Below, piece after piece: positions 18,996 to 60,821 of a DNA stretch of 64,000 nt. The translations under genes were made by a program, and so were the position numbers. The DNA lies in NCBI GenBank assembly GCA_034429745.1, contig DAOUFY010000123.1, positions 895-64,894 on the forward strand, read 5' to 3'. The notes under the pieces are model-generated. The model worked only from the letters and a program-made list of their open reading frames with translations, had not been told where the DNA came from and did not search any database. The stretch's first letter is position 1; every line of letters starts with the position of its first letter. Source of the stretch: Anaerolineales bacterium. GTDB lineage: Bacteria > Chloroflexota > Anaerolineae > Anaerolineales > DRKV01.

Positions 18996-19011
18996 CAGTT
19001 GTTTTTTCTCC

Positions 19012-37362: not shown

Positions 37363-37489
37363 AACCAACAAAACTCCTCTAAAATTATTAAATTATTTTA
37401 TTTATACAGGTAAAGAAAGACGTCTCCAGTTATACTTTTACTTTCAGCCCTGTATTAAACCAAATTCACTTACCTCTTTTGCCCATATC

Positions 37490-38122: not shown

Positions 38123-38161
38123 AATAAAAACCTACCTAATTCTTTTATGTTTATGCATTAA

Positions 38162-40504: not shown

Positions 40505-40518
40505 AGGATTACCTCACA

Positions 40519-41007
40519 CTATGCTTTCTTAGCCGCAGCTAATTTCTGAGCAGCCAATTCCACTGAATCAATGATGAACTCATAGCCGGTGCAGCGGCAA
40601 ATATTGCCGCTAATTGCTTCTCTAATCTCTTCCCGCGAGGGATGAGGATTTTCTTCAAGGAAAGCAGTTACCGTCATGAGAAAACCGGGTGTGCAAAAAC
40701 CACATTGCAAACCATGCTTTTCACGAAAAGCTTCCTGAATTGTGTGCAGATGATCCTTGTCGCCTAAGCTTTCGACAGTACGCACTTCATGATTATTTGC
40801 CTGTACTGCAAACATTAAACAAGAACGCACTGGCTTTCCATCAAAAAGAACAGTACAAGCTCCGCACACGCCGTGTTCACATCCAACGTGCGTTCCTGTC
40901 AATCCAAGCTCATGACGGATGAAATCGCTTAATAACATCCGCGCCTCTACATTGCGTTCATAAATCGTGCCATTTACATTGACTTTAACAGGGTAAAGCT
41001 TACTCAT
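40519..41007 (-). CDS. [2Fe-2S]-binding small subunit of the Mo-hydroxylase
   Basis: Cys motifs CEHGVCGACTV and CGFCTPG ... CRCTGY. Start at ATG 41007 behind AAGGAGG. Confidence 0.9.
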   Translation of the reverse strand: MSKLYPVKVNVNGTIYERNVEARMLLSDFIRHELGLTGTHVGCEHGVCGACTVLFDGKPVRSCLMFAVQANNHEVRTVESLGDKDHLHTIQEAFREKHGLQCGFCTPGFLMTVTAFLEENPHPSREEIREAISGNICRCTGYEFIIDSVELAAQKLAAAKKA

Positions 41008-41008
41008 C

Positions 41009-41887: not shown

Positions 41888-41895
41888 AGTTCGAT

Positions 41896-41947
41896 GCCTC
41901 CTTAACTTCCTCAAGGAGGCTTAGCAAGACCATCTCTAAGCCTCCTT
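41896..41947 (-). promoter_or_regulatory. Intercistronic RNA element: SD-like / anti-SD / SD triplet able to form two alternative hairpins
   Basis: On the mRNA, AAGGAGGCUUAG (comp. 41936-41947) pairs perfectly (12 bp) with CUAAGCCUCCUU (comp. 41913-41924). The same CCUCCUU can instead pair (8 bp) with the true SD AAGGAGGC (comp. 41896-41903). Confidence 0.5.
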
Positions 41948-41962
41948 TGATAACACTCGTTC

Positions 41963-43636: not shown

Positions 43637-43671
43637 AATAATTAAACCTCCAAATCGCAACTGCTAAAAAA

Positions 43672-44916: not shown

Positions 44917-44934
44917 AATAACCTCCAACAAAGA

Positions 44935-46671
44935 TCACTTTTGCTGCTTCATGCGCTGCAGAATCGAAGCCAATTTCTCATTGCCGCCCGCCGGAGGTCT
45001 CCAATCCACATGCATGACCTCAACCTTTTGGGCAATCAAGTTTTGAGCGAATGACTCTAAACCAACGTTAATGGCAACGACCGGTTTTTTAATCACATCC
45101 AAATCTACCGGCTTGAAGGAAAAAGCCTCTTGAGTCTCTTCTTGGTTAAGCGCTTGCACTAATGCTCCCGCATAGCGCACAACCACCTCATTATCTACAT
45201 CAACCCAAGCTCCCGCCTTTTTCAACTGCGCTATTTGGTTGTTGATGTTTTGTGGATCCTCATCTGTACCTGTAACCACTACCGCTACTTCAAGGTAACG
45301 TCCAGCTTTTTCAGCCAGCGCTTTAGCCTCAGCAATCGCTGGCGCCAGTTCGCTGGCAGGATCAGGATGTGAACCATACCCAATGACAACATCCAGCATA
45401 ATTACTGCGACAGAGGGATCAGCCGCCTCTTCCATCAGCCGTCGAATGCGCAGTTCATTATCCATCATGGGGTGCAAACGACCAACGGTGAACTCATCTT
45501 CTCCCAAATCCACAATACAATGCTCCTGGCTGACCAATGAATTGGGCAGCTTGTCCTCCTTGTTTATTGGGGCGTTGGCTAATACCCGCGGCAAATAATC
45601 CTTTAGAATGTGCTGTGCTTCATAGGCTAAAGTTCCGCCAGAAAACAGACCGCGGAAATACTTTTGCCCTGCAGCGAATTTACTGACAGGGAGCTCCACT
45701 TTGCGCTGCTGTTTGCCGCCGGCGCCCGATTTCACTAAATCCACTGCTATCCGCGCCGCATCATCTAAACCGCTAGCAAAGATCAAGTTATCCATCTCTC
45801 TGCTGCGAGAAACATACCCCACAAAACTGATCACTACCGGCTTGCCAGCTGCCTTTGCCTTTTCCAATACTTGCTGAGCTACTTTAGGTGCAGGCGGTTT
45901 TGAAACCAAAACTATCACTTTCGTATCCGCATCGCGGCTCAAGGCATCCAGACCCATCAAAAACGTTTTCGCCCCCACTTTTTCTGATAAATCGCGTCCG
46001 CCGGTGCCGATACCAAAAGTCATACCGCTGCCTAATTGATGAATGCGCGACGACACCTGTTGCAGCCCAGTCCCTGCCGCTGCCACTACGCCGATTGGAC
46101 CCAACCTCACTTTATTGGCAAATCCTAACCCTATACCGCGCACTACAGCTGTACCGCAATCAGGACCCATTACCAGCAAGCCTTTCTGGGCTGCCATCTC
46201 TTTAAGAGATATTTCTTCTTCTACCGGCACATTATCGCTGAAAAGAAACACATGCTTTCCAAGCGACAGCGCATCGCGGCTAACGCCCGCTGCATACCGT
46301 CCTGCAACTGAGACCAACACCCACTGAGATTCGGGAAGCGCTTTCGCGGCTGATTCAACACTTTGTGGCCGATACTCTTGTTCAATGGTTGAGCGGCGCT
46401 GTGTAAGCAGCTCATCCAGACGAGCCAACGCTTGGTCTGCAGCGGTCTCCGTATCGGCACGTACCACTACAACCAAATCATCCGCTTTTGCACTTTCCAC
46501 TTCAGGGGATAATAAATCAATTCGGGCAAGGAGTTCCTTATTCGTATCCGTGCCCATCACAACACCCGCGTCTTGCACGCCAGGCAAATCAGAAAAGGTG
46601 CGCTGAAGCTGCATAAGAAACGCAGAATCATAATACGCACCTCTGCGGATAACCGCCTTTATTGATGACAT
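44935..46671 (-). CDS. fdrA: FdrA-family protein (succinyl-CoA-synthetase-alpha-like)
   Basis: 578 aa with a CoA-ligase-like core (GPDCGTA, IGVVAAAGTGLQ). It pairs with the DUF1116 gene as in E. coli fdrA-ylbE. Confidence 0.75.
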   Translation of the reverse strand: MSSIKAVIRRGAYYDSAFLMQLQRTFSDLPGVQDAGVVMGTDTNKELLARIDLLSPEVESAKADDLVVVVRADTETAADQALARLDELLTQRRSTIEQEYRPQSVESAAKALPESQWVLVSVAGRYAAGVSRDALSLGKHVFLFSDNVPVEEEISLKEMAAQKGLLVMGPDCGTAVVRGIGLGFANKVRLGPIGVVAAAGTGLQQVSSRIHQLGSGMTFGIGTGGRDLSEKVGAKTFLMGLDALSRDADTKVIVLVSKPPAPKVAQQVLEKAKAAGKPVVISFVGYVSRSREMDNLIFASGLDDAARIAVDLVKSGAGGKQQRKVELPVSKFAAGQKYFRGLFSGGTLAYEAQHILKDYLPRVLANAPINKEDKLPNSLVSQEHCIVDLGEDEFTVGRLHPMMDNELRIRRLMEEAADPSVAVIMLDVVIGYGSHPDPASELAPAIAEAKALAEKAGRYLEVAVVVTGTDEDPQNINNQIAQLKKAGAWVDVDNEVVVRYAGALVQALNQEETQEAFSFKPVDLDVIKKPVVAINVGLESFAQNLIAQKVEVMHVDWRPPAGGNEKLASILQRMKQQK

Positions 46672-47004: not shown

Positions 47005-49113
47005 TTATTGCACTCCCCACAGCTGTATAGCCCCACCATCAGACCCTGAAGCAAGAACCTCACCATCTGGTGAAAAAGCTACGCTCATCATCATGCCGGC
47101 GTCTCCCTCCAATGTACGTAGCAGCTCCCCATCTGCTGCCCGCCACAACCTCACACTCCCATCAGCCGACCCTGAGGCAAGAACAGTCCCGTCAGGCGAG
47201 AACGATATGCTCGAAATCCAATTCGTATGTCCTTCCAACGCGCGCAGCAACTCACCGTCCGCTGCTCGCCACAGCCGTACGGTACGATCCCCAGCCCCTG
47301 AAGCAAGCAATTTATCGTCTGGTGAGAAGGCTACGCTATATACCCCGTACGTATGTCCCTCCAATATGCGCAGCAACTCACCGTCCGCTGCTTGCCACAG
47401 CCGTACAGTGTTATCCCCGGAACCTGAGGCAATGACCGAACCATCCGCTGAGTAAGATACGCTTAATATTCCATCCGTGTGCCCCTCCAACGTGTGCAGC
47501 AGCATACCATCCTTTACCCCCCACAAGCGCACAGTGTTATCTCCAGACCCCGAGGCAAGGATCGAGCTGTCAGGTGAGAAGGTTACACTCGTTACATAGG
47601 ATGTGTGTCCCCATAGGGTACGCAGCAGCTCCCCGTCCGCTGCTCGCCACAGACGCACAGTGCGGTCCCCAGACCCTGTGGCAATGGTCAACCCATCCGC
47701 CGAATAAGCTATACTATTCACCCTATCCGTATGCCCCCACAACCTTCGCAGCAACTTACCGTCTGCTGCCCGCCATAGCCGCACAGTACCATTATCTGAC
47801 CCTGAGGCAAGAACTGACCCATCCGCTGAGTAGGCTATGCTCATCACCTTATCCTTTTGTCGCTCCAGTGTGCGCAGCAGTTGTACTTGAGCAGCATTTG
47901 CAGCAGAAATTCGTCTTTCCTGCACCGTCGCAGTTGCGCTAAATCGTTCAGTGGCAATAATCTCGTCCTTCTGCTCTATATCCTTCCTTTGCTGCCAACT
48001 TATCTCTTGTGTAAGCCCTTGTGCTACTCTCATTTGCGGTTCCATATCTTTCCTTTGCTGCCAAATGACACCCCAAGCAGCTATTATAAGAACAATAACC
48101 GCCGTTACCCATATCCACCTTTGAGTTAGTTGAAGGTTGGGGTGTTCCGCGGGAATCTTATTTGATAAAACTACCCTCTCCTCTGCTTTCATTCCATTAT
48201 TAGCTTTAGCTTTCTTAATCACCGTGTCCTCTAGCTCACTTGCCCTCTTCTCTCCGCTTGACTGCGACACGTTTATCGCTGCTCCGATCAACTTTTTCAT
48301 CGCACCAACCATCTCGTCCATCCCAGCATAGCGATCCCGCCAATCTTTTGCCAGCGCCTTGATTATCAAGTCCTCCGCTTCATCCGGGAGATCAGTCATT
48401 ATTTGCGATGGCTTTAGCAGTGGTTCTGTGGCTTGCTTGATGGCTATCGCCATCGGCGTGGTGGCTGTGTACGGCTTTCTCCCAGTTACCATCTCATAGA
48501 GAATCACCCCCAACGCATACTGGTCTGATTGTGGTAATGCCTCTCCTCTCCATTGCTCCGGCGCCATGTATTCCGGCGTGCCTACCCCAGCTCCACTCCT
48601 AGTCAATGCGGTCTCTTCCCCTTCCAGTATTTTCGCAACCCCAAAATCGGCAAGCATCAGCTCACCTGAGCGCGTGATCAATATATTCGAGGGTTTTACA
48701 TCGCGGTGTACTATTCCTTCTCCATGAGCATATTCCAATGCACAGGCTATGGGTAACAGTAGCTGTAGAGCTTCTATATACGACAGCTGACAACGCTCCT
48801 GCAGTAAAGATTTGAGTGTCCCTTTAGGCAGATACTCCATCACTAGATACGGCGAACCCTCATATTCTCCATAATCATATACCTTCACAATATTCGGGTG
48901 TGAAAGCCGCGCTAGCGATTTAGCCTCCCTCTCAAAACGCCTGAGAATACGCTTCAGAACAGCCGGCGCAAATTGCTCGGTGCGTATGACTTTGATAGCC
49001 ACATGGCGCTCAAGACGCGTATCGTAAGCTTTATAAACTATAGCCATCCCCCCTTCCCCTATTTGCTCAAGAATATGGTACCGCTCAAGATATTGTCCAA
49101 CGAGATTGGTCAT
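47005..49113 (-). CDS. Ser/Thr protein kinase with a TM helix and a seven-blade WD40 domain
   Basis: Kinase motifs GEGGMAIVYKA, HRDVKPSNIL, DFG and APE. One TM helix and 7 x 42-aa WD repeats (GHT...VRLW). Start at ATG 49113, since the AAGGAGG SD lies inside the longer ORF-track version. Confidence 0.9.
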   Translation of the reverse strand: MTNLVGQYLERYHILEQIGEGGMAIVYKAYDTRLERHVAIKVIRTEQFAPAVLKRILRRFEREAKSLARLSHPNIVKVYDYGEYEGSPYLVMEYLPKGTLKSLLQERCQLSYIEALQLLLPIACALEYAHGEGIVHRDVKPSNILITRSGELMLADFGVAKILEGEETALTRSGAGVGTPEYMAPEQWRGEALPQSDQYALGVILYEMVTGRKPYTATTPMAIAIKQATEPLLKPSQIMTDLPDEAEDLIIKALAKDWRDRYAGMDEMVGAMKKLIGAAINVSQSSGEKRASELEDTVIKKAKANNGMKAEERVVLSNKIPAEHPNLQLTQRWIWVTAVIVLIIAAWGVIWQQRKDMEPQMRVAQGLTQEISWQQRKDIEQKDEIIATERFSATATVQERRISAANAAQVQLLRTLERQKDKVMSIAYSADGSVLASGSDNGTVRLWRAADGKLLRRLWGHTDRVNSIAYSADGLTIATGSGDRTVRLWRAADGELLRTLWGHTSYVTSVTFSPDSSILASGSGDNTVRLWGVKDGMLLHTLEGHTDGILSVSYSADGSVIASGSGDNTVRLWQAADGELLRILEGHTYGVYSVAFSPDDKLLASGAGDRTVRLWRAADGELLRALEGHTNWISSISFSPDGTVLASGSADGSVRLWRAADGELLRTLEGDAGMMMSVAFSPDGEVLASGSDGGAIQLWGVQ
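47008..47889. repeat. Seven tandem 126-bp WD40-blade coding repeats with high nucleotide similarity
   Basis: Recurring ...GTVRLWRAADGELLRTLEGHT... at both protein and DNA level. The repeats generate long spurious antisense ORFs. Confidence 0.85.
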
Positions 49114-49630
49114 TGAGACCTCCTTTGCCAAGATTAATAAATCTTCCTAACAAACTACAATAGTTCAAATGATCATAATTTACCTCTATCTTCTGTTCCT
49201 TGTGCACTCTTGGTAAACAAATCGCTTTCCAGCGTAAATTAGCATCCTTTCTTCCTTAACTTAATTTATCATCAATAGTGAACATGATCATTTTAGGGGG
49301 CTATCAAACAAACTATATTTTTCCTAGGCTTCATTTATTAAAAAAGCAAAATTTATAGACACCAACTCTACCATTTTCATTATAGCACCGGAATTTCGCA
49401 TTGAGACATAAATCTCAATCTCTATGCTGTATCTTGCGTAACTTTTTTTAGAGAAGCGGGTTTTCTTTGTTAGGAAAAAGATTCTCACCTGCGAGTTGCA
49501 TTAGACAAAACGCTTCCCTTTAACCCAATCGGTTTTCAATTTAGTACCGTTATTGGCGAGCCTTAGCTTGCATAAGCAAAGGTGAGATTTTTTCTATCTA
49601 ACTTCACGAAAAAAGGAGATCGTATTCAAG

Positions 49631-52600
49631 ATGAGTACTACTCAACCTATTGCGATTGTTGGTTTAGGTGCCATTTTGCCTGATGCGCTAAATGTTCAGG
49701 ATTTTTGGCAAAACCTGCTTTCCGCTCGCTATAGCATTAGCGAGGTTACTAAAGACCGCTGGGACGAAGCTCTGTATTACGACTCTGACCCAAGCGTTCC
49801 TGATAAAACTTATTCAAAAATTGGCGGGTTTGTGCGCGGTTTTCGTTTTGAGCCCCTAAAGATGAAGCTGCCTATTCCACCTAATGTCGCCGCTGTCATG
49901 GATGAAGCCCAGCAATGGGCTATCGTTGCCAGCTATCAAGCCTTGCAGGATTATGGTTACCCTCAACGCTCACTTGATCCAGAAAGGGTGGCGGTTATCT
50001 TTGGCAACTCTATGGCTGGCGAATATCATTATCGAACCAATATGCGCATCTTTTTACCAGAGTACGAACAAGCGCTGGCTTCCTCTGAAGCTTTTCGCCA
50101 ATTAACCCCCGAAATTCAAGCGGCAATTTTGGAAGGGTTTAAATCCCAAATCCGCTCACGTATCCCCAACATCACCGAAGATACCATGCCCGGCGAGCTT
50201 TCAAATATCATCGCCGGCAGGGTCGCTAACTTATTCAACTTCAGTGGGCCCAATTTTGTTACTGATGCAGCTTGTGCCTCATCCTTCGCCGCACTTCAAG
50301 CAGCTATCGAAGGCTTGCAATCATACCAATTTGATGCTGTGCTTAGCGGCGGCATTGACCGCAATATGGGCGTTGAATCTTATGTAAAGTTCTGCAAAAT
50401 CGGCGCTCTTAGCCCGGATGGATCCCGCCCGTATGCCGATGGAGCTAATGGCTTCGTGATGGGTGAAGGTGCAGTGGTTTTCTTGCTTAAACGCCTAGCC
50501 GATGCCGAAAAAGATCAAGATCGCATCTATGCCGTTATCCGCGGAATAGGCGGCAGCAGTGATGGGAAAGGCAAAGGTATTACTGCTCCCAACCCATTAG
50601 GTCAGCAGCGAGCTATTGAACGTGCTTGGAAAAACGCTGCTCTATCTCCGAGTACTGCAACTCTCATCGAAGGTCATGGCACATCAACTCGAGTAGGTGA
50701 TGTGGTTGAAGTGAACACATTGAATACGGTGTTCTCACCCTTCAATCTGCCAACCGCCTCGATAGCTTTAGGTTCAGTAAAATCAAACATAGGCCATCTT
50801 AAAAGCGCAGCTGGAGCAGCTGGCTTGTTAAAAACCGTGCTTTCCCTTTATCATAAAAAACTCCTCCCCAACGCTAACTTCCATCGTCCAAATCCTAATT
50901 TAGACTTTGACCGTCTTCCTTTCTATGTGCTGACCACAGTAAAAGATTGGGATCAACCTAAAGCAGATATCCGCCGTGCCGGCATAAGTTCATTTGGGTT
51001 TGGTGGTACAAACTTCCATCTTGTCGTGGAAGAATATCTGCCCGGCTATGCCTTAAAGGGTTCCTCTTCTTACAGCGGCGTTGCATTGTCTGTTGCTCCT
51101 ATTCAATCAGCTTCCCCTGCCCACGTTAATGCGCAAACGATCCCTCAATCAATACCTGCAACACAAGTACAGTCAGCTTCTCCCTCACCAGCACCTCAGC
51201 CTGCTAATGCTGATATTCAAGCCACTGTCCTCAAACTCGTCGCTGAAAAAACCGGCTACCCTGAGGATATGCTCGACCTAGACCTCGACCTCGAAGCTGA
51301 CCTCGGTATTGATACCGTCAAGCAAGCTGAACTCTTCGCCACCATCCGCCAGCATTTCGGCATCCCCCGCCGCGAAGACCTGCGCCTCGCTGACTACAAT
51401 ACCCTCGCTAAAGTCATCCAATTCATGCAAGAAGCTCTCTCAGGCAGTTCACCTGCCCAAGCACCTCAACCAACAACAGCACCGCAGACAGCTCAGTCGG
51501 CTTCTCCCTCACCAGCACCTCAGCCTGCCAATGCTGATATTCAAGCCACTGTCCTCAAACTCGTCGCTGAAAAAACCGGCTACCCTGAGGATATGCTCGA
51601 CTTAGACCTCGACCTTGAAGCTGACCTCGGCATTGACACCGTCAAGCAAGCTGAACTCTTCGCTACCATCCGCCAGCACTTTGGCATCCCTCGCCGCGAA
51701 GACCTGCGCCTCGCTGACTACAACACCCTCGCCAAAGTCATCCAATTCATGCAAGAAGCCCTCTCAGGCAGTTCACCTGCCCAAGCACCTCAACCTTCAC
51801 CAGCACCGCAGGCAGCTCAGCAAGCTTCTCCCTCCCCAGCACCTCAGCCTGCTAATGCTGATATTCAAGCCACTGTCCTCAAGCTCGTCGCTGAAAAAAC
51901 CGGCTATCCTGAGGATATGCTCGACCTAGACCTCGACCTCGAAGCTGACCTCGGTATTGATACCGTCAAGCAAGCTGAACTCTTCGCCACCATCCGCCAG
52001 CATTTCGGCATCCCCCGCCGCGAAGATCTGCGCCTCGCTGATTACAACACCCTCGCCAAAGTCATCCAATTTATGCAAGAAGCCCTCTCAGGCAGTTCAC
52101 CTGCCCAAGCACCTCAACCAACAGCAGCTGCAGCCATATCCGTTGAAAAGGCTACCTTGCCTCCTTCTGCACCTCAGGCGTCAGCCCAGCCCAGACAGCG
52201 TGGATTGCGCGGAATTCTCTTCCTCAGTGCAACCGATCCCCAATCTCTACAGCAGCAGTGCGAACAAGCAATTAATGCAACCCGCAATGGGATTTTGCCA
52301 AATCAAGCTCCACTTTCCACTCATGAACTTTCTCAACCCGAACGATTAGCTATAGACTATGGCAGCGCTGAAGAACTTATAAAACGCGCTGAAAAAGCTC
52401 TTTCGGCTTTTGAAAACCCATCGCTTTGGCAAAATTTAACCGGGCAAGGCATTTATCGCTTCAGCGGTTCTAATAAAGACCACAAAGTAGCTTTCCTTTT
52501 CCCCGGTCAAGGTTCTCAATATGCCAATATGCTGCGCGACTTATTTGATGTTTCTTCTTCGGTAAGAGATACTTACGCCGAAGCAGATGCCGTTATGACA

Positions 52601-55600
52601 CCCCTTCTTGGCAAACCGCTTACCGACTACATTTTTTGTGAAAATACCGAAGAAGCTATTAAAGCCGCTGAAGCCGAATTGAAAAACACCATCATTACCC
52701 AGCCGGCTGTACTTACCGCAAATGTCGCTTTGATGCGTCTGCTGGGAGAATACAATATTCATCCCGATCTTGTGATTGGACACAGTCTTGGTGAATATGC
52801 TGCCTTAGTCGCAGCAGGAGTGCTCAGCTTTGCAGAAGCGCTTGAAGTTGTCAGTGCGCGCGGCCGTGAGATGAGCAAAGTTACTGTTGCGGATAACGGC
52901 ACCATGGCAGCTATTTCTGCCCCTCTAGAAGTAGTCGAATCAACACTCAAGCAAATTGACGGCTATATCGTTATCGCTAATATTAATAGTCCTTCCCAGT
53001 CCGTGATTGCCGGGGAAACCGCTGCAGTTGCTTCAGCAATCGAAGCTTTTCAAGCTGCCGGCTACCAAGCAGTCAAACTATCAGTATCTCACGCTTTTCA
53101 CAGTAAAATTGTTGCACCAGCCAGCGAACCGTTGCGCAAAGTCATTCAGCGCATGCACATTCACCCCCCCAAGCTGCCTATTGCAGCTAACGTTACTGGT
53201 GATCTATACCCCAACACAGTTGAGGAAATAACAGACTTGCTCTGTCAGCAGATTGCATCACCAGTTCAATTCATTCGCGGCATCAATACGCTATACAATC
53301 ATGGAGCTCGCATATTTGTGGAAGTTGGTCCCAAACGCGTCCTCAGTACTTTGGCTTTAGAAATCCTTAAAGACAAAAACGATGTGTATATTTTTTCCAC
53401 TAACCACCCACGCAAGGGCGGAATTGCCAGCTTCAATGAAGGGTTATGTGGCTTATATGCTTGCGGTTTGCCTCGTCAAACAGCAGGAACAACAATCCAA
53501 TCAACGCAGATGCCCTCCATCCCCAAGAATACTTCAATCAAATACACTAGCTTTCCTAAATGGAATGGCCGTCTTCCGTTAAGCGGTTCCGTGGTCATCA
53601 GTGGTGCAGGACTAGGTTTACCCGGTAAAGCTCACCACGTTTTCGAAGATGACAATATTCAACGGCTGCTCAATGGTGAAATGCGCATTGATCCACTTCC
53701 TGAAGAGATTCGGCGTGAGATGGTCTCTCTGCGTATTACTCGTTTAGAAAAAAGCGAAAGTGGTGCGGTGATGGTACCTATAGAATCAACCAATCAAGTA
53801 ATAAAGCTAGCCGGTCAACGCGGTGCTTTTGATTTGCATCAGGAGTTTGGCATACCTCAGGAGAGAGTAGATGCCCTCGATATAACCACTCAGCTCGCTA
53901 TCGCTGCCGGAATTGAGGCGCTGCGCGACGCAGGCATTCCACTAATAATGAATTTCCGTAAAACCAGCAAAGGCACTTATTTGCCTGACCGTTGGATGCT
54001 CCCTCCGGCTTTAGCTGACGAAACCGGCGTAATCTTTGCTTCCGCCTTCCCCGGCTTAGGTGGTATGGCAGAAGAGCTTGAACGCTACTACACCGCCCAG
54101 CAAATTCAGGCCCAAATCTCAGAAATAAGCAGCTTGCTTGATCTTATACCTAATGATAATCAAGCTTTGCGTGAAAATCTGCTCAATCGCTTAGCGGAAT
54201 TGGAAGAGCAATCGAAAGCTCATCCCTATCAATTTAACCGTAACTTCATCTTTCGTGTGCTGACGATGGGACATTCCCAATTTGCTGAATACATTGGGGC
54301 GCGCGGTCCAAACACTGCGGTCAACGCTGCTTGTGCTACAACAACTCATGCCTTGGCTATAGCAGAAGATTGGATCCGCGCCGGACGCTGCCGCCGCGTT
54401 ATTGTCATCGCCGGCGACGATCCAACAAGCGGCAGTATTGCTCCTTGGATCAGCGGCGGGATGTTCGCCAGCGGCGCAGCAACCACGGAAGGTAATTTGC
54501 GCCTTGCTGCCCTACCCTTTGATCGGCGTCGTAACGGAATGCTTATGGGAATGGGCGCAGCTGCCCTTGTCGTAGAAGCTCAAGAAGCCCTTGTTGAACG
54601 CGGTATGACACCCATCTGCGAAATTCTTGCCTCCGTCATAGCTAACAGTGCCTTCCATGGAACACGCTTAAACATAGACCATGTAAGTCAGGTAATGGAC
54701 CGAGTACTGAGCGAAGCAGAAACTCGCTACGGCATTAAGCGTTCTGAGATTGCCCCTCATACAGTATTCATCTCACATGAAACTTACACCCCGGCTCGCG
54801 GCGGCAGTGCTTCAGCTGAGATCCGTGCCCTGCGCTACACCTTTGGAGACCAAGCGGATAAAGTGATGATCGCCAATACCAAAGGTTACACTGGTCATGC
54901 TATGGGCGTCGGCATCGAGGACGTGCTTGCCACAAAAGCTCTGGAATACCAAATCGTTCCTCCGATTGCTCATATCAATGATGGCTTTGAACCCGATCCG
55001 GAATTGGGCAACCTCAACCTCTCGCGTGGCGGCAAAGCTGATGTTCACTACGCCTTACGGCTTGGAGCAGGTTTCGGTTCTCAGATCGCCATGTCCTTGA
55101 TGCGGAAAGTTGGCACCGCCGGGCAGCGTATTGACCATCCTCGCTACCAGAAGTGGCTATCCAACATCTCTGGTTACCCCAACCCGACATTAGAGGTTGT
55201 TCAACATACTTTGCGGATCAAAAATGAAGGCGTCCCTCCTCAACCTCCTGCAGATTCTGAATGGCAATATGGTCAGGTTCCAAAGGCTTGGGCATTAGAC
55301 GTACCGCCAACAGCAGATGCTTTCTTAGCTCACAGTGAGTCTATCCCTAGTGCTGATCAGTCCGAGATAACCCAACAACCAACACCGCAGAGTCCGGCAG
55401 CAACTAGTCCAATTGAACATGCTGACCCAACAACCTTAGCTGAAGTAGCTCAACACGTTCAACGCGCCCTAGTAAACGGCTCAGACCCCCTCAGCCTGTC
55501 AGCATATAAAGAACTATTTGAGCCGGCAAGCAAACTCCCCCAAGTAAGTGAAGAAAAGAGGATTTCACTGCTTGCACCAATTTTCAAAGCTGCTAGTCAA

Positions 55601-58204
55601 GCACAGCAACCTCCTGCAGAGCAATCTCCGCAGATCGAGATTAGCCATGAAAGTGAAAAGATTGAGGAGGCAAAACCAGAAATCAAGCGCCGCATTCCTT
55701 TGCCTAGTCTGCGCCCTCGCTTAGACCTATGCCTCCCAACCAACATTGCTCTCAATGCCGAAAGCCGTATCGTGTTTGTTGGCAGCAAGCATAAAGCCGC
55801 TGAAGCCTTGCTGCGCAAATTGCGCAACCGCAAAGTTAAGCTGCTTTCCATCCAGACTGATGATCCTCAGGAAATCCAAACTCAAATTCAAGCCTTCTCT
55901 CAAGAAGGTGAACTGCAAGGTGTGTTTTTCCTAGCTGCTTTAGATACAGAACCACCCCTTGGGGAAATGGATTATCTTGCCTGGCAAACTGAACTTGACC
56001 ATCGTCTCTATACTCTCGAAGCCATATTGCGTGCTATCCCTTACCAACCTAATGCAGCGCATCAACCCTTCCTTGTTTGCGCTACGGCTATGGGTGGTGC
56101 TTTTGGATATGATGTCGAAGGTGCCCGCTCGCCCTTAGGCGGAGCCGTGGTTGGTTTAGCTAAAGCCATTGCTCGTGAACGCCAAGGCTGGTTCGTTAAG
56201 GTAATAGACTTTTCGCCCAACGAAAGTTCTAACTTCATCGCTGAAAAGCTTATTGCCGAAACTCTTCAAGATAATGCTGTGATCGAAGTAGGGTGGAAAA
56301 ACAACATGCGCTTCGGCATTACTCTTCACGAACAGCCCCTGCCAAGCTCAGAATCAACTGTTTCCTTGAGTCTGGCAGATCAGACCCCCGTTGTTTTAGT
56401 AAGCGGCGGCAGTGGAGGTATCACCGTCCCAATTCTGCTAGATTTAGCAAAAACAGTCCAAGCTCATTTCTTCCTACTGAGCCGCACACCCCTCCAAGAA
56501 GATGACCCAGATCTTATTCTCTTCAAACAAATCGGCAGAAATGCCTTGAAACAAACTTTGCTCCAGCGAGCAAAAGAAAGCGGTGTTAAAGTAAAGCCGG
56601 CCGAAATTGAAAGGCAAATTGATGTACTCGAACGCAAAGCTGCTGCCCAAGCTGCTGTGGAAGCACTCACTCAAGCCGGCTCCCAAGTAACCCACTTGGT
56701 TTGTGATGTAAGCCAGAGTGAATCAGTAGAACAAACTGTACAGCAAGTATTGTCTCAAGCCGCTCGAGTTGATGTACTCATTCATGCAGCTGGTGTTGAA
56801 CGCAGCCGCAGTTTAGAGACCAAACCAACCGAAGAATTTCATCAAATTGTTGCCATCAAAGCCGGCGGTTTCTTCAACCTTTACTCAGCTTTGCTGAAGC
56901 ACCAAGCACTGCCTAAAGTGATGATCGCCTTCGGATCGGTAGCTGGCCGCTTTGGCAACAGCGGACAAACAGATTACAGTGCCGCCAATGATCTGCTGAG
57001 CAAGCTCTGTTCAGCTATCAGAAAGACTCATAACATTCAGGCAGTCTGCATTGATTGGGGCGCTTGGGCAGAGGTTGGCATGGCAAGCCGCGGTGTTATC
57101 CCTGAATTGATGCGCCGCGCCGGCATCGAGATGATGTCTCCTAACGCTGCTGCTCCCTTGTTGCGCCAAGAGCTGCTGAGCGGCTGCCCGCATAGCGAAG
57201 TCGTTTATAGCGGCAGCTTAGGCATTCTTGAACAACAAGCCGATGAAGCATATGGCTTGGATCTTGAAAAAGCAAATACTGCCCTCACTGAAGGCAAGCC
57301 TATTTATGAGATGATCACCCGTCTGAACAGCTTCACTCCTCAAGATGGCATCTACTTAGAAGCCGAGCTTGATCCTCAAGAATATCCCATGTTGCGCGAT
57401 CATGCCATTCGAGGTATTCCCGTTTTACCGGGCGTCATCGGTATTGAAGGCTTTCGCATTGCAGCCCGCCACATTGCCTCAACGCTTGCTTCTCAGAAAG
57501 GCAGTTTCCTAGCACAGCACCTTGAAGATATTCAATTCCTTGTCCCATTCAAGTTTTATCACAATGCACCGCGTCGCATTCTTTGGAAAGCAAAAGCTCT
57601 ACTGGAAGAAAAGGGGTTGATTGCTTATGCTACATTAGAGTCAACTCGCGTCCGCCCCAATGGTGAAGTTGACCATCGCTTGCATTTCAAAGGCAAGGTT
57701 TTCCTCACTCCCACCAAAGAAGCTCTGCAGCCTGTCAAAACTCAACCGCCGCATTGGAATGGAGCTTATACGGTAAGTTCAGATGATATTTACCGCATAT
57801 ATTTCCATGGTCCAGCTTTCCAAGTACTAGAAGCCGTACAACGCAACAATGGGCATATCATCGGTAAAATGCATCAGCAAGTGCTTGATTACACTAAAAA
57901 CCCCATCCCCTACTTAATCGAGCTCTGCCTGCAAACGGCCGGTGTTTGGGAAATTGGGCTTAGAGGCATCTTAGCTTTGCCGAACGCTATTGATCAACTC
58001 ACTATCTACACCAATAAGCTAAATGGAAAAGCCATTTTTGCCCAAGTATTTCCCCAAATAAATGGCGATTCTTATACCTTTGACGCCCAAGCCATTGATG
58101 CAGAAGGTAATTTACTCGTTGAGATGAAAGGGTACCGCACCATCGCCACCGAGATGTCGGTTGACTCTGATCTCATCCTTCCCTTAAGGAAGTTAATGGA
58201 ATAA
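49631..58204 (+). CDS. PUFA-synthase-like (pfaA-type) iterative type I PKS/FAS: KS - 3xACP - AT - KS - KR - DH
   Basis: KS1: DAACASS, HGTSTRVGD, NIGHLKSAAG. Three ACP-like domains follow. AT: GHSLGEY and HAFHS. KS2: NAACATTTH, SHETYT, GYTGHAMG. KR: SGGSGGIT and YSAAND. C-terminal DH: HAIRGIPVLPG (HxxxGxxxxP). Confidence 0.9.
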   Translation: MSTTQPIAIVGLGAILPDALNVQDFWQNLLSARYSISEVTKDRWDEALYYDSDPSVPDKTYSKIGGFVRGFRFEPLKMKLPIPPNVAAVMDEAQQWAIVASYQALQDYGYPQRSLDPERVAVIFGNSMAGEYHYRTNMRIFLPEYEQALASSEAFRQLTPEIQAAILEGFKSQIRSRIPNITEDTMPGELSNIIAGRVANLFNFSGPNFVTDAACASSFAALQAAIEGLQSYQFDAVLSGGIDRNMGVESYVKFCKIGALSPDGSRPYADGANGFVMGEGAVVFLLKRLADAEKDQDRIYAVIRGIGGSSDGKGKGITAPNPLGQQRAIERAWKNAALSPSTATLIEGHGTSTRVGDVVEVNTLNTVFSPFNLPTASIALGSVKSNIGHLKSAAGAAGLLKTVLSLYHKKLLPNANFHRPNPNLDFDRLPFYVLTTVKDWDQPKADIRRAGISSFGFGGTNFHLVVEEYLPGYALKGSSSYSGVALSVAPIQSASPAHVNAQTIPQSIPATQVQSASPSPAPQPANADIQATVLKLVAEKTGYPEDMLDLDLDLEADLGIDTVKQAELFATIRQHFGIPRREDLRLADYNTLAKVIQFMQEALSGSSPAQAPQPTTAPQTAQSASPSPAPQPANADIQATVLKLVAEKTGYPEDMLDLDLDLEADLGIDTVKQAELFATIRQHFGIPRREDLRLADYNTLAKVIQFMQEALSGSSPAQAPQPSPAPQAAQQASPSPAPQPANADIQATVLKLVAEKTGYPEDMLDLDLDLEADLGIDTVKQAELFATIRQHFGIPRREDLRLADYNTLAKVIQFMQEALSGSSPAQAPQPTAAAAISVEKATLPPSAPQASAQPRQRGLRGILFLSATDPQSLQQQCEQAINATRNGILPNQAPLSTHELSQPERLAIDYGSAEELIKRAEKALSAFENPSLWQNLTGQGIYRFSGSNKDHKVAFLFPGQGSQYANMLRDLFDVSSSVRDTYAEADAVMTPLLGKPLTDYIFCENTEEAIKAAEAELKNTIITQPAVLTANVALMRLLGEYNIHPDLVIGHSLGEYAALVAAGVLSFAEALEVVSARGREMSKVTVADNGTMAAISAPLEVVESTLKQIDGYIVIANINSPSQSVIAGETAAVASAIEAFQAAGYQAVKLSVSHAFHSKIVAPASEPLRKVIQRMHIHPPKLPIAANVTGDLYPNTVEEITDLLCQQIASPVQFIRGINTLYNHGARIFVEVGPKRVLSTLALEILKDKNDVYIFSTNHPRKGGIASFNEGLCGLYACGLPRQTAGTTIQSTQMPSIPKNTSIKYTSFPKWNGRLPLSGSVVISGAGLGLPGKAHHVFEDDNIQRLLNGEMRIDPLPEEIRREMVSLRITRLEKSESGAVMVPIESTNQVIKLAGQRGAFDLHQEFGIPQERVDALDITTQLAIAAGIEALRDAGIPLIMNFRKTSKGTYLPDRWMLPPALADETGVIFASAFPGLGGMAEELERYYTAQQIQAQISEISSLLDLIPNDNQALRENLLNRLAELEEQSKAHPYQFNRNFIFRVLTMGHSQFAEYIGARGPNTAVNAACATTTHALAIAEDWIRAGRCRRVIVIAGDDPTSGSIAPWISGGMFASGAATTEGNLRLAALPFDRRRNGMLMGMGAAALVVEAQEALVERGMTPICEILASVIANSAFHGTRLNIDHVSQVMDRVLSEAETRYGIKRSEIAPHTVFISHETYTPARGGSASAEIRALRYTFGDQADKVMIANTKGYTGHAMGVGIEDVLATKALEYQIVPPIAHINDGFEPDPELGNLNLSRGGKADVHYALRLGAGFGSQIAMSLMRKVGTAGQRIDHPRYQKWLSNISGYPNPTLEVVQHTLRIKNEGVPPQPPADSEWQYGQVPKAWALDVPPTADAFLAHSESIPSADQSEITQQPTPQSPAATSPIEHADPTTLAEVAQHVQRALVNGSDPLSLSAYKELFEPASKLPQVSEEKRISLLAPIFKAASQAQQPPAEQSPQIEISHESEKIEEAKPEIKRRIPLPSLRPRLDLCLPTNIALNAESRIVFVGSKHKAAEALLRKLRNRKVKLLSIQTDDPQEIQTQIQAFSQEGELQGVFFLAALDTEPPLGEMDYLAWQTELDHRLYTLEAILRAIPYQPNAAHQPFLVCATAMGGAFGYDVEGARSPLGGAVVGLAKAIARERQGWFVKVIDFSPNESSNFIAEKLIAETLQDNAVIEVGWKNNMRFGITLHEQPLPSSESTVSLSLADQTPVVLVSGGSGGITVPILLDLAKTVQAHFFLLSRTPLQEDDPDLILFKQIGRNALKQTLLQRAKESGVKVKPAEIERQIDVLERKAAAQAAVEALTQAGSQVTHLVCDVSQSESVEQTVQQVLSQAARVDVLIHAAGVERSRSLETKPTEEFHQIVAIKAGGFFNLYSALLKHQALPKVMIAFGSVAGRFGNSGQTDYSAANDLLSKLCSAIRKTHNIQAVCIDWGAWAEVGMASRGVIPELMRRAGIEMMSPNAAAPLLRQELLSGCPHSEVVYSGSLGILEQQADEAYGLDLEKANTALTEGKPIYEMITRLNSFTPQDGIYLEAELDPQEYPMLRDHAIRGIPVLPGVIGIEGFRIAARHIASTLASQKGSFLAQHLEDIQFLVPFKFYHNAPRRILWKAKALLEEKGLIAYATLESTRVRPNGEVDHRLHFKGKVFLTPTKEALQPVKTQPPHWNGAYTVSSDDIYRIYFHGPAFQVLEAVQRNNGHIIGKMHQQVLDYTKNPIPYLIELCLQTAGVWEIGLRGILALPNAIDQLTIYTNKLNGKAIFAQVFPQINGDSYTFDAQAIDAEGNLLVEMKGYRTIATEMSVDSDLILPLRKLME
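51176..52147 (+). repeat. Three tandem 324-bp near-identical repeats, each encoding one ACP domain plus a Pro/Ala/Gln linker
   Basis: The GCTTCTCCCTC... motif recurs at 51176, 51500 and 51824, an exact 324-nt period. Confidence 0.9.
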
Positions 58205-58256
58205 AACTCAAAGGCTTTTCCCATCCTTCCCATAAAGAAGGTTATCATATAAAATC

Positions 58257-58285
58257 GTAAGGGCGGATATCAAATCCGCCCTTAC
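58257..58285 (+). terminator. Rho-independent-type hairpin after the megasynthase gene
   Basis: GTAAGGGCGGAT-atcaa-ATCCGCCCTTAC, a 12-bp perfect stem followed by a pyrimidine-rich CTCTTCTCC rather than a clean U-run. Confidence 0.55.
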
Positions 58286-58325
58286 CTCTTCTCCGTATCA
58301 TTCAACCTTTGCCTCGATCTCTCTT

Positions 58326-59090
58326 ATGGATACCTTTATTTTTGAACAAGAATCTATTTATGGCATATTCCTCAATGCCCCTTCAGAACAAGACAAAGAA
58401 ACATGGCTAGCGTATGAAAATTATCTTTCGGAACAAGAAAAGCTATTTCTAGCAGGGCTGCGTTTCCCCAAGCGGCAGCGTGATTGGCTGTTAGGTCGCT
58501 TCACGGCTAAAAAACTGCTGCTTGAATTCCCGCACCTTGCGTCAAGCTGCCCCATTCACCAACTGACAATTGCTAATGACCCTCAAGGAGCCCCTTGCAT
58601 CCTTCTACCAGACCAAACCGTAATGAATGGTTGTTTATCCATCAGCCACAGCAGTGGTGCGGCTTTCTGTGCTTGGACTCCCCTTACAACTCAACACATT
58701 GGAGCAGATATTGAACTCATTGCCCCTCACCCTCAATACTTTATTGAAGATTATTTTACACCATTTGAAATCGCCCAATGTGCACAAGCCCCTGAACCAT
58801 TGCGCGCAGATCTTGTAACCGCAATTTGGAGCGCAAAAGAAGCTGTCCTCAAAGCTCTGCGGCAAGGCTTGAAATGGGACACACGTCAAGTTGAAATCAA
58901 TCTCTCTGCAATAAATCTCGAGCAAACGCAGTTCGGCATTTGGTACCCGGCAGAGGTTGCACAGCCAAAAAGCAAAGAAAAAACTTGGCAGCTTTGGATT
59001 CAACGCTCCCAAGTCTATATACTCACGTTAGCTTGCTTAAAAGAAACCGCCGTTATTGAACCAGAGGGGAATACGGCCGGTAGGCATTAA
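58326..59090 (+). CDS. Sfp-type 4'-phosphopantetheinyl transferase
   Basis: Motifs GADIELI and WSAKEAVLKAL (WxxKEAxxK). Confidence 0.8.
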   Translation: MDTFIFEQESIYGIFLNAPSEQDKETWLAYENYLSEQEKLFLAGLRFPKRQRDWLLGRFTAKKLLLEFPHLASSCPIHQLTIANDPQGAPCILLPDQTVMNGCLSISHSSGAAFCAWTPLTTQHIGADIELIAPHPQYFIEDYFTPFEIAQCAQAPEPLRADLVTAIWSAKEAVLKALRQGLKWDTRQVEINLSAINLEQTQFGIWYPAEVAQPKSKEKTWQLWIQRSQVYILTLACLKETAVIEPEGNTAGRH

Positions 59091-60690
59091 ACCAAGCCGC
59101 CGGCACAGGGATACCATAATCCATTAAGGTATGCAGCCTCCGTAGATAAGCAGCACCGCTCAGCAAATGCAAGGCTACATCCGCCACATGTCGTTGCGCA
59201 GGTTCTGCCAAATAGCTGCCTCGCACCCACTCATTGAAAGCTCCTAGACTCGGACCGCACCATATTTGGTAATCAACCTCACGTCCTTTCTCGCCAAGCA
59301 CTGCCCAATGGGAAGATAAGCCAAGATACCAGCGAAACACCAACGCCATTTTTTGCTTCGGGTCTCGTTTTGCCCGCTCTATTTGGCTTGCATCTCGTTG
59401 ACTGAAGAAGCGCTGAGTCTCCTCCCATATTTCCTCAAGACTGCGTTTAAAAATTTGCTTTTCTATCTTCTCTCGCTCTTCGGCTGGAATTTCTTCCAAA
59501 GAGCCATAGCGCACATAGAGCTCATATAGTTTTAGAGCTCGCATGGCAAACATTGTTCCTCTTTTCAGCACCTGCACCTTCACACCCATTTCAAACATAT
59601 CCGCTGCAGGCGCCATAGCAACATCGGTCATTTCCATTTGACTGAGCAGCTTTTTCACATGCTCACTTGTACCGCTCTCTACACAGGATTGATTCACCGA
59701 GCCGCTTACGAGATATGCAGCTCCTAATTGCAATGCAGCATAAGCAGCGGCAGGAGTGCCAATTCCTCCCCCACCACCAACGCGAACCGCTTGTGCATAC
59801 TTCTTTTCCGCTTGTATTTCATCTCGCAAAGCGATGATAGCAGGCAAAGCCAGCACTAAAGGACGGTTATCCGTATGTCCGCCGGAATCGGCTTCTACGG
59901 TAATGTCATCTGCCATGGGAACAGCTTCAGCTAGTGCAGCCTGTTGGGCGGTAATCTTTCCGGCAGCTAGCAGCTGCTGCACCATATCTGCCGCCGGCGG
60001 AAGCAGAAAATGCTTCGCTACCTCCTTGCGGGATACCTTCGCTATGATTCGGTTTCTTGGCTGCGGCTTACCTTGCTCATCTACCACCAAACCACAGACT
60101 CTATACTGCACTAAAGGTAGGGTTAACCCTAAATAAGCAGAAGCTTCTATAGCCCGAATTTCATGCTTTAAATACAGCTCGACTGTATTTTGCTCCATTG
60201 CCGGCTCATTTGGGCTATTGATCAAATTAAACAAATATGGGCCATTGGGAAGTGCCGCTTTTATGGTTTGGATTGCCTTTTCAATCCTTGAAAGCGACAG
60301 TCCAGCAGCTCCAAATGAACCCATTAAGCCAGCCTTTCCTAATGCGATAACCATCTCCTCTGAGCTGATGGCATTTGCCATTGCTCCTCCATAGTAAGCA
60401 TATCGACAGCCGTAAGTTCTGCAAAAGGTTTCATCTCCTAGCTGCTGGAGCGACAATGGTGGTAAATATGCCGCTAGCTGCCTTTCTCCTTCTTCTATCG
60501 CAAGGTTATCAGCTTTGCTAATGCTGCCTTCAATCGTGTAACCTAAGCGGTCGTGGTCATCAAGCACATAAACAGGCTGATCCAATTCCAACAAGACACG
60601 AGAGACTTGTTCTCCCTGAAAAGCGACTTTGCTCAAATCGCCTTTCCATTTCAATAAACGTAAAGGGTGGTTATAATTTGTTCCGTTCAT
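59053..60690 (-). CDS. PfaD-family trans-acting enoyl reductase (nitronate-monooxygenase fold)
   Basis: Motifs YGGAMANAISSEEMVIALGKAGLMGSFGAAG and SGGHTDNRP. Start placed at ATG 60690 (545 aa), because the 587-aa ORF-track version covers the divergent promoter. ATG 60714 is also possible. Confidence 0.8.
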   Translation of the reverse strand: MNGTNYNHPLRLLKWKGDLSKVAFQGEQVSRVLLELDQPVYVLDDHDRLGYTIEGSISKADNLAIEEGERQLAAYLPPLSLQQLGDETFCRTYGCRYAYYGGAMANAISSEEMVIALGKAGLMGSFGAAGLSLSRIEKAIQTIKAALPNGPYLFNLINSPNEPAMEQNTVELYLKHEIRAIEASAYLGLTLPLVQYRVCGLVVDEQGKPQPRNRIIAKVSRKEVAKHFLLPPAADMVQQLLAAGKITAQQAALAEAVPMADDITVEADSGGHTDNRPLVLALPAIIALRDEIQAEKKYAQAVRVGGGGGIGTPAAAYAALQLGAAYLVSGSVNQSCVESGTSEHVKKLLSQMEMTDVAMAPAADMFEMGVKVQVLKRGTMFAMRALKLYELYVRYGSLEEIPAEEREKIEKQIFKRSLEEIWEETQRFFSQRDASQIERAKRDPKQKMALVFRWYLGLSSHWAVLGEKGREVDYQIWCGPSLGAFNEWVRGSYLAEPAQRHVADVALHLLSGAAYLRRLHTLMDYGIPVPAAWFNAYRPYSPLVQ

Positions 60691-60753
60691 CACTTCTTTA
60701 AACCCTCTTGTCATAAAAACGTTGCACATTAAAAAATAAATTCTGCCAAGCAA

Positions 60754-60782
60754 TTGCTCACTTGCCAAAAATAGATTATAAT
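60754..60782 (+). promoter_or_regulatory. Promoter TTGCTC-17 nt-TATAAT for the Zn-ribbon/nuclease genes
   Basis: Read directly. The -10 box sits within the palindrome ATTATAAT, so the same box could also serve the divergent pfaD-like gene. Confidence 0.5.
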
Positions 60783-60821
60783 CGGCTTCACTATTGGAAT
60801 AAATAAAAAAGGACAACCATC

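Follow-up and report, generated by a model that had tools for sequence, protein, structure and literature searches.

We analysed a three-gene lipid synthase locus in a 64,000-nt stretch of DNA from an Anaerolineales bacterium (contig DAOUFY010000123.1 of assembly GCA_034429745.1, positions 895 to 64,894 of the forward strand), here called the window. The open reading frame (ORF) map, together with Pfam and NCBIfam scans, placed at 49631..58204 on the plus strand a gene that starts with ATG and encodes a giant PfaA-like synthase of 2857 aa. Downstream lie a plus-strand gene for an Sfp-type phosphopantetheinyl transferase (PPTase; 58326..59090, 254 aa) and a minus-strand gene for a PfaD-family enoyl reductase (ER; 59053..60690, 545 aa) of the FMN, FabK/NMO type, which is predicted to act in trans. 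The reductase ORF spans 59053-60816 on the minus strand when taken to its full length; translation likely starts at the ATG at 60690, since AAGAGGG stands upstream of that codon and the resulting 545 aa matches homologues of 553 aa. The PPTase and reductase genes are convergent and overlap by 38 nt, as a first-pass annotation of this DNA had stated. The overlap is not kept in relatives at the Anaerolinea thermolimosa and Bellilinea caldifistulae loci; there the synthase and PPTase genes overlap, and the 121-nt spacer that separates them in the window is missing. Searches by tblastn with each domain of the locus found no second ketosynthase (KS), acyltransferase (AT), acyl carrier protein (ACP), ketoreductase (KR), dehydratase (DH), ER or PPTase in the 64 kb.

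The synthase reads KS1-ACPx3-AT-KS2-psiKR/KR-DH on one polypeptide, with Pfam and NCBIfam domain calls at E-values of 1e-12 to 1e-200, far past chance. This is the order given in the first-pass annotation, KS-ACPx3-AT-KS-KR-DH, with a structural KR (psiKR) added. KS1 (49643..51037, +; aa 5-469; PF00109, PF02801 and PF16197) is an elongating ketosynthase with Cys215, His349 and His389 and intact DAACASS, HGTST and KSNIGH motifs, and its nearest solved structures are KS domains of type I polyketide synthases (PKSs). The three tandem ACPs (51170..52128, +; aa 532-598, ~640-706 and ~748-814) matched PF00550 three times, with 94 bits over the three, and thus bear the signature of the PP-binding fold. 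In the DNA the ACP region is a 324-bp repeat of 3.0 copies with 94% identity (TRF). An assembly artefact was considered for this repeat and ruled out, because the copies are 94% and not 100% identical and relatives have 1-6 copies. The KS-AT linker and a malonyl-type AT follow (52238..53383, +; AT at aa 955-1251; PF00698 at 2e-45, FabD-like TIGR00128 at 9e-66), with Ser1052 in GHSLGE and HAFH at 1154-1157; from established PKS knowledge, we take HAFH to mean malonyl specificity. KS2 (53588..55120, +; aa ~1320-1830) matched PF00109, PF02801 and PF08545. Next come psiKR (aa ~2040-2165) and the catalytic KR (aa 2255-2481), together at 55748..57073 (+) and both matched by PF08659; the KR motifs GGSGGIT and YSAAN are intact, with Tyr2449, and the segments match PKS KR structures. 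The protein closes with a PKS-type double hot-dog dehydratase (PS-DH; 57335..58153, +; aa 2569-2841; PF21089 and PF14765), whose HxxxGxxxxP motif is intact, with His2591. This dehydratase is not FabA-type, and the Pfam and NCBIfam scan of the synthase found no FabA-type domain, in line with the earlier claim that a FabA-type dehydratase/isomerase is absent.

A search with the full-length synthase gave 7939 protein matches at E <= 1e-20. The 120 best of these are 2550-3030 aa long and have the same Pfam set, and the named organisms among them are all Chloroflexota, nearly all labelled Anaerolineae (A. thermolimosa, B. caldifistulae, Longilinea arvoryzae and Thermanaerothrix). The closest match, P0001, is a 99% identical protein of 2641 aa from a JGI metagenome; the next best synthase is ~60% identical, and in one-genome-per-species GTDB the best KS2 identity is 75%, from which it follows that the host belongs to an Anaerolineae lineage without a close sequenced representative. 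P0001 has one ACP against three in the window and is exactly 2 x 108 aa shorter; either the number of 324-bp repeats truly differs or the assembly has collapsed there. The synthase, PPTase and convergent PfaD genes are kept as a unit, with unrelated flanks, in A. thermolimosa, B. caldifistulae and 24 Anaerolineae-type loci.

The second KS had been read in the first pass as keeping a full Cys-His-His set and not being a chain length factor (CLF), that is, a KS fold without the active-site Cys. KS2 has NAACATT at aa 1565-1571, SHETYT at 1715-1720 and GYTGH at 1752-1756, and in a HMMER alignment Cys1568, His1716 and His1756 fall residue for residue on the catalytic triad of Staphylococcus aureus FabF (2gqd), which confirms that claim. 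Assignment of KS2 as a CLF was rejected, the triad being both intact and conserved: among the 120 best homologues HETYT occurs in 120 of 120 and the Cys motif, by pattern, in 119 of 120, and in an alignment of 10 sequences the triad residues do not vary. The domain carries a helical insert of ~100 aa, and between phyla it is conserved better than any other domain (58-61% identity). Judged from these alignments, KS2 does not correspond to the CLF of PfaC but forms a separate, strongly conserved KS class that always stands after AT; in some relatives it occurs alongside a KS-KS' pair. KS2 is the hallmark domain of the synthase family, and searches with it showed how widely the family is spread. 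A KS2 pattern search of species-representative genomes gave at least 597 confirmed stretches, and a filter-free phmmer search of 1.84 billion cluster representatives (50% identity) gave 609 matches at E <= 1e-30. Among the matches listed were, on the Chloroflexota side, Anaerolineae, Caldilineaceae and Oscillochloris, and further Terriglobia, Bryobacterales, Blastocatellia, Solibacteraceae, Acidimicrobiia, Thermoleophilia and Microthrixaceae, as well as Myxococcales, Gemmatimonadales, Verrucomicrobiia and Rhodothermales. Proteins of 300-570 aa that consist of KS2 only were also numerous on very long contigs of up to 2.5 Mb (e.g., P0279, P0348 and P0390); these could be stand-alone KS2 genes or synthase genes split by frameshifts in long-read assemblies. 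As a query, a 328-aa KS2 fragment of Oscillochloris matched only fragmentary gene calls, and a full-length query reached Roseiflexus.

The kinship of the locus with the pfaABCDE polyunsaturated fatty acid (PUFA) synthases of Shewanella, Moritella and Photobacterium is evident from the shared parts, i.e., a PfaA-like KS, AT, tandem ACPs, KR, PS-DH, PfaD and an Sfp-type PPTase. The whole synthase scored 1059 bits against TIGR02813 (omega_3_PfaA; curated cut-off 1010.1) and the reductase 657 bits against TIGR02814 (PfaD; cut-off 449), and over aa 1-532 the reductase matched the solved PfaD structures 6lkc (E = 3.7e-196) and 4yx6 (E = 8.7e-192). Since both cut-offs are passed and PfaD structures are the best reductase matches, one might suppose that the locus is a canonical-type PUFA synthase, or the remnant of one, with the PfaB and PfaC functions encoded elsewhere in the genome. 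We consider this very improbable. Unlike pfaABCDE, the window has no PfaB, no PfaC (KS-CLF) and no FabA-type dehydratase/isomerase, and none of these, nor a CLF, was found in the 64 kb or in ~80 related loci; adjacent pfaB or pfaC genes were likewise missing from the 24 related Anaerolineae loci when 10 kb on either side was included. Domain prediction gave neither the canonical PfaA order, KS-MAT-ACPn-KR-DH (MAT, malonyl-type acyltransferase), nor a CLF in the place of KS2; rather, the domain order is another one, an extra KS of the active type follows AT, and the family has a conserved architecture of its own with KS2 in place of KS-CLF. We know of no named Anaerolineae host that makes PUFAs. 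The named hosts are anaerobic fermenters (PMC11837533). The passed cut-offs and the absence of FabA together support the first-pass view of a pfa-like secondary-lipid locus whose product would not be a PUFA.

Two other pfa-like systems are instructive. The heterocyst glycolipid synthase (HglE/HglC/HglD; antiSMASH 'hglE-KS') is iterative and pfa-like, with tandem ACPs, and makes a long non-PUFA chain without FabA domains (PMC3098273, PMC11804610). Unlike the locus studied here, however, the Hgl system is made up of several proteins, with a KS-CLF-AT subunit, a terminal reductase and glycosyltransferases, none of which was found at the window or at the relatives' loci. Enediyne synthases (PKSE) have the order KS-AT-ACP-KR-DH-PPTase, are iterative and related to PUFA synthases, and make a conjugated polyene with a single KS, a single ACP of the Ser type and no ER. 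The window synthase resembles PKSE in bringing its own PPTase, which in remote relatives of the window protein is fused C-terminally, and differs in that an ER partner and a second KS are constant features of its family.

A closer fit is provided by the 'Type R' synthases of Shulse & Allen (2011, PLoS One 6:e20146, PMC3098273), described as KS-MAT-'CLF'-ACP(3-6)-KR plus a PPTase, with an uncharacterised product, from Roseiflexus, Koribacter, Solibacter and Elusimicrobium. As in Type R, the window has one giant PfaA homologue in which a second KS-like domain stands directly after AT, together with tandem ACPs, KR and a downstream PPTase gene. The domain called 'CLF' in 2011 has the full Cys-His-His triad in the family, and the PS-DH found in the window synthase was not annotated in the 2011 description. 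Two Roseiflexus sp. proteins, P0433 and P0442, read KS1-AT-KS2-ACP3-4-psiKR-KR-DH, have Thr carriers (see below), and are 58-60% identical to KS1, AT and KS2 of the window. Two differences from Type R stand out. In the window the ACPs are all between KS1 and AT, with none between KS2 and KR, and the unit includes a PfaD gene, whereas the Acidobacteriota and Actinomycetota operons have an acyl-CoA dehydrogenase (ACAD), the electron-transfer flavoprotein subunits EtfAB, an Fe-S protein and a single-chain acetyl-CoA carboxylase (ACC). By its architecture and its similarity to the Roseiflexus proteins, the locus is best filed as a permuted, Anaerolineae-specific member of Type R. The earlier comparison with PfaA/B/C was thus right in calling the order non-canonical, but the frame was the wrong one, and as a permuted Type R the locus is less singular than it had seemed. 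What is new at the locus is best filed as the extreme relocation of the ACPs and the replacement of ACAD-Etf by PfaD, within an already catalogued kind. The Type R-like family itself extends far beyond the five genomes first listed, to hundreds of cluster representatives in many phyla, among them Chloroflexota, Acidobacteriota, Actinomycetota, Myxococcota, Gemmatimonadota and Verrucomicrobiota.

The position of the carriers varies within the family. Among the 120 homologues KS1-AT-KS2-ACPn-psiKR-KR-DH is the order seen most often, but ACPs are found in any of three linkers (KS1|AT, AT|KS2 and KS2|psiKR), giving 25 architectures in which the other domains are collinear. About 60% of the close homologues have an ACP block between KS2 and KR, and of 121 proteins only that of the window and the near-identical P0001 lack an ACP after KS2. 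Outside Anaerolineae the order is always KS1-AT-KS2-ACP(2-6)-psiKR-KR-DH. Read from this distribution, the ancestral order is KS-AT-KS2-ACPn-KR-DH, and the placing of all carriers before AT is a derived, lineage-specific permutation, of which the window is the most extreme case among those seen. To judge from the architectures, the carriers evidently work from any of the three linkers, a freedom of placement that is useful for megasynthase engineering.

The history of the permutation is less clear. A rough neighbor-joining tree contains several Anaerolineae clades with relocated ACPs and puts the window on a long branch, apart from the other clade with ACPs before AT, a placing that weighs against the account given above. 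Contrary to the tree, three loci with ACPs before AT (L005, L006 and L014) have a divergent Ser/Thr kinase gene upstream and a KS2 69-73% identical to that of the window, and this shared synteny and KS2 identity would tie the window to the ACP-before-AT clade. The kinase genes of these loci lie at L005:3203-5488, L006:1277-5511 and L014:1146-5510, and the kinase domains are 35-41% identical. The C-terminus of the window kinase, encoded by the divergent Pkinase+WD40 gene upstream of the synthase (47005-49131, -; Pfam), is of the WD40 type; the kinases of the related loci have other C-termini, PnrA-like/Bmp in the one scanned. A regulatory link of the divergent kinase to the synthase is possible, given this arrangement. 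The place at which relatives carry the post-KS2 ACP is taken up in the window by a diverged stretch of about equal length. Within it, at 55418..55474 (+; aa 1930-1948), lies a candidate remnant of the last helix of an ACP, HADPTTLAEVAQHVQRALV, which resembles the last helix of the family ACP, LADYNTLAKVIQFMQEAL. The match is weak and covers 19 residues (hhalign against the ACP profile, E = 0.012, probability 3.7%), and HADPTTLAEVAQHVQRALV may be the relic of a deleted post-KS2 carrier.

The carriers themselves depart from the usual type. To our knowledge, the attachment residue of carrier proteins that have been studied is Ser in every case, and the ACPs of PUFA synthases carry LGIDSIK, with Ser. 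All three ACPs of the window instead read DLGIDTVK, with Thr562, Thr670 and Thr778 (ACC codons at 51314-51316, 51638-51640 and 51962-51964) at the position of the phosphopantetheine-attachment Ser. The Thr aligns with the attachment Ser of solved ACPs, e.g., DLGVDSI in PigH and DLGADSL in AcpP, and Ser at the 4'-phosphopantetheine site (D-S-L/I; PROSITE PS00012) is absent from all three. The three ACPs noted in the first pass are thus present, but they are not ordinary carriers. Nor is the window an exception. In the close family Thr was found at 650 of 650 carrier sites (405 sites from 121 proteins and 245 from the fetched loci, two sets that overlap in part), and 68 diverse full-length distant representatives have ~210 Thr and ~6 Ser, i.e., ~97% Thr of ~216 sites. 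The motif DLG[IV]DTVK is strongly conserved across the family. The rare Ser carriers, such as P0183 (DLGIDSVK x5) and P0246 (DLGIDSIK), have their Ser at the same homologous site, and such interchange of Ser and Thr is as expected if Thr is the functional nucleophile. Since Ser is missing from the site and its surroundings in the domain cores, the attachment residues would have to be Thr562, Thr670 and Thr778.

The accompanying PPTase has the domains PF01648 and PF17837, the motifs IGADIE and WSAKEAVLKAL, and matches to the Sfp and AASDHPPT structures. It has the two lobes and the (V/I)G(I/V)D and (F/W)(S/C/T)xKE(A/S)xxK motifs of the Sfp-type (group II) enzymes. The first-pass identification of both accessory enzymes stands, the PPTase by its domains and the PfaD-like reductase by TIGR02814. 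Against the HetI equivalog NF042922 the PPTase scores 41 bits, far below the cut-off of 370. In Anaerolineae loci, and in many loci of other phyla, the PPTase gene comes straight after that of the synthase, and the window PPTase is 30-37% identical to the PPTase domains that are fused to remote synthases of the family. A family-specific PPTase lineage that travels with the Thr carriers is indicated by this adjacency or fusion and by the level of identity.

We tentatively propose that the carriers bear 4'-phosphopantetheine on Thr, installed by this co-evolving PPTase, whether adjacent or fused; on the sequence comparisons we rate the proposal as a serious possibility, a little short of probable. 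Thr-type carriers run against the textbook rule of phosphopantetheine on Ser, and two observations count against the proposal, namely that the S36T form of Escherichia coli ACP cannot be modified (PMC3340395) and that the PPTase shows only the canonical Sfp motifs, none of which explains acceptance of Thr. A search of open-access papers found no description of Thr-linked phosphopantetheine, though an earlier description may exist. If the linkage is real, it could free the system from the housekeeping AcpS and AcpH and could alter the stability of the prosthetic group. The S36T result, taken with the loss of the post-KS2 carrier from the window, might instead suggest that the carriers are dead, Thr being refractory to phosphopantetheinylation, and that the locus is a decaying or repurposed relic. 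This we find hardly credible, given that Thr is part of an invariant motif throughout the close family and nearly so in the distant one, that the carrier domains, at 59-84% identity, are among the best conserved parts of the synthase, that the catalytic motifs are all intact in an uninterrupted ORF of 8.6 kb, and that a dedicated PPTase is kept, even as a fusion to the synthase.

The enoyl reductase is supplied in different, mutually exclusive ways across the family. When the ORFs of 83 loci were clustered, PfaD was found in 24 Anaerolineae loci, with ACAD in none of those 24, and among loci from other phyla an ACAD gene, usually accompanied by genes for EtfAB and an Fe-S oxidoreductase, stands directly upstream of the synthase in 39 of 51 and PfaD occurs in 0 of 51. 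The one exception is L029, which is labelled Anaerolineae and has ACAD-synthase-PPTase without PfaD. The operon of the other phyla runs Fe-S/CCG oxidoreductase (~700 aa), EtfB, EtfA, ACAD (~560 aa), synthase, ACC and PPTase; examples among L031-L083 are L036:578-21035, L037, L044, L053 and L067. The ACC, found in many non-Anaerolineae operons, is a single chain of ~1870 aa with the order biotin carboxylase, biotin carboxyl carrier protein (BCCP), central region, carboxyltransferase. The ACAD, EtfA and EtfB genes, a module that is absent from the window, resemble the ACAD-Etf enoyl-CoA reductases, namely clostridial Bcd-EtfAB, AcrABC and the caffeyl-CoA reductase CarCDE: their best curated families are subunits of the clostridial acryloyl-CoA reductase (AcrABC), all below the cut-offs (e.g., 232 vs 640 bits), and the solved Bcd-Etf and CarC-Etf complexes rank high. 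A third arrangement is found in remote subfamilies of 35-45% KS2 identity, in which an NMO-type reductase is fused N-terminally and often a PPTase C-terminally, giving proteins of 3500-4040 aa (P0240, P0265, P0192, P0191 and P0153); P0240, for example, reads NMO-KS-KS'-AT-KS2-ACP6-KR-DH, and P0192 ends in an ACPS domain. A BLAST comparison of the window PfaD with the N-terminal NMO domains of remote relatives gave no match, so the two look like independent ER solutions. We infer that the synthase family cannot do without enoyl reduction, which non-homologous modules supply, and that in the Anaerolineae version PfaD has displaced ACAD-Etf.

In some Anaerolineae loci, genes for carboxyltransferase, biotin carboxylase and BCCP lie directly upstream of the synthase (L011:2738-6390, L020:1471-5170 and L030:2772-6425), and these multi-subunit carboxylases parallel the single-chain ACC of other phyla. 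As far as gene content can tell, a dedicated ACC and tandem carriers point to a high-flux acyl product.

The reading that we favour, and consider probable though by no means secure, is that of a self-contained type I fatty-acid/polyketide synthase, iterative and fully reducing, whose product would be a long-chain acyl lipid that is saturated or nearly so. A reduced and largely saturated product is argued for above all by the obligatory nature of enoyl reduction, and a PUFA is disfavoured because there is no FabA-type dehydratase/isomerase. In the scheme that we envisage, the PPTase would convert the three carriers to the holo form on Thr562/670/778, and the AT, a domain seen in the sequence with a specificity suggested by its HAFH motif, would load malonyl units. 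KS1 and KS2, with their intact triads, would both perform decarboxylative condensations, probably dividing the work by stage or chain length, e.g., priming or malonyl decarboxylation versus elongation, in a manner that may be likened to KS_A and KS_C of PUFA synthases. Each reduction cycle would be completed by the KR and the PKS-type DH of the synthase and by PfaD, presumably acting in trans. Release would fall to the AT or to an unlinked acyltransferase, as there is no thioesterase.

Several points tell against this scheme. The synthase has no thioesterase and no off-loading domain. The role given to KS2 is purely a matter of deduction from its sequence, and the view of ACAD-Etf as a reductase and not a desaturase is inferred from the mutual exclusivity with PfaD and from family matches that lie below the cut-offs. 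In the literature on the Type R product, on KS-AT-KS architectures and on PUFA-like clusters linked to ACAD, ETF or ACC, we found nothing beyond Shulse & Allen 2011.

The ER data also bear on the possibility that the chain is only partly reduced and is functionalised (hydroxy, keto or mono-unsaturated), like the aglycones of heterocyst glycolipids or the precursors of alkylresorcinols, with the ER used in some cycles and with unlinked tailoring. Kinship with the pfa/hgl/ars secondary-lipid synthases would suit such a product, as would a trans-acting ER, which permits optional reduction, and two KS domains that could gate separate stages; moreover, without a thioesterase, downstream partners must exist. 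No R domain, glycosyltransferase, type III PKS or tailoring gene, however, is conserved beside the Anaerolineae unit, and the three routes by which the family obtains an ER speak for enoyl reduction as a central step, not an occasional one. We therefore regard a functionalised chain as unlikely, though worth keeping in view.

It could also be asked if the synthase is simply the housekeeping fatty acid synthase (FAS) of Anaerolineae, which replaces or out-fluxes the dissociated FAS II and makes the bulk C14-C17 acids of the membrane. All activities of the FAS cycle (KS, AT, ACP, KR, DH and ER) are present, and the unit occurs in every named Anaerolineae genus matched, i.e., Anaerolinea, Bellilinea, Longilinea, Leptolinea, Ornatilinea and Thermanaerothrix. 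Its flanking genes are housekeeping genes that differ between genomes, the carboxylase genes lie just upstream in some loci, and the tandem carriers suggest high flux. But Acidobacteriota and Actinomycetota have this synthase family alongside an ordinary FAS, and cultured Anaerolineae make iso- and anteiso-branched acids, typical of FabH priming. No FAS II genes were found in the about 0.5-1.5 Mb of fetched loci and flanks, a sample that is uninformative on this question. On balance a housekeeping role appears decidedly unlikely, and a dedicated synthase of saturated or nearly saturated long-chain lipid is preferred.

For the family as a whole, recruitment of the ER by three unrelated routes and the frequent presence of its own ACC point to a high-flux reduced acyl lipid in abundant bacteria of soil, sediment and digesters. 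The wider interest lies in features of the family, namely Thr carriers with a PPTase lineage of their own and interchangeable ER modules. The three-gene Anaerolineae unit is the smallest complete version and hence the most practical one for heterologous expression.

The first-pass annotation had also noted a non-coding region of ~500 bp upstream of the synthase and, beyond it, the divergent WD40 kinase gene. The region between the two genes (49132..49630) is indeed 499 bp long, with 34% GC, and no ORF longer than 54 aa was found in it; from its position it is presumed to be the promoter and leader region of the synthase. Promoter-like hexamers were no more frequent in 49132..49630 than in shuffled sequence, and an Rfam search matched no family anywhere in the 64-kb window, the leader included. 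A regulatory RNA in the leader was accordingly dropped as a candidate. The promoter and terminator scans were at background but for one hairpin. This hairpin (58257..58285), found by the terminator scan and seen in the sequence, is GC-rich, has a 12-bp stem, and sits in the 121 nt that separate the synthase and PPTase genes. On the minus strand a T-run follows the stem, giving the look of a terminator, and the hairpin could, if it works as one, end a reductase transcript that crosses the PPTase gene in the antisense direction.

In Pfam scans, 29 neighbouring ORFs proved to be unrelated genes (purine/allantoin catabolism, a tRNA synthetase, transporters and a prophage-like block). The prophage-like block, at ~11938-20331 (-), encodes a phage capsid protein, a Siphovirus Gp37-like protein and a protein that begins with an Mtd_N (major tropism determinant) domain, which hints at a target of a diversity-generating retroelement. 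An anaerobic purine/allantoin catabolism cluster at 35522-46671 (-) contains genes for a xanthine/uracil permease, the molybdopterin and FAD subunits of a xanthine-dehydrogenase-type enzyme, a cyclase, an AllG-like oxamate carbamoyltransferase subunit and a CoA-ligase-like protein.

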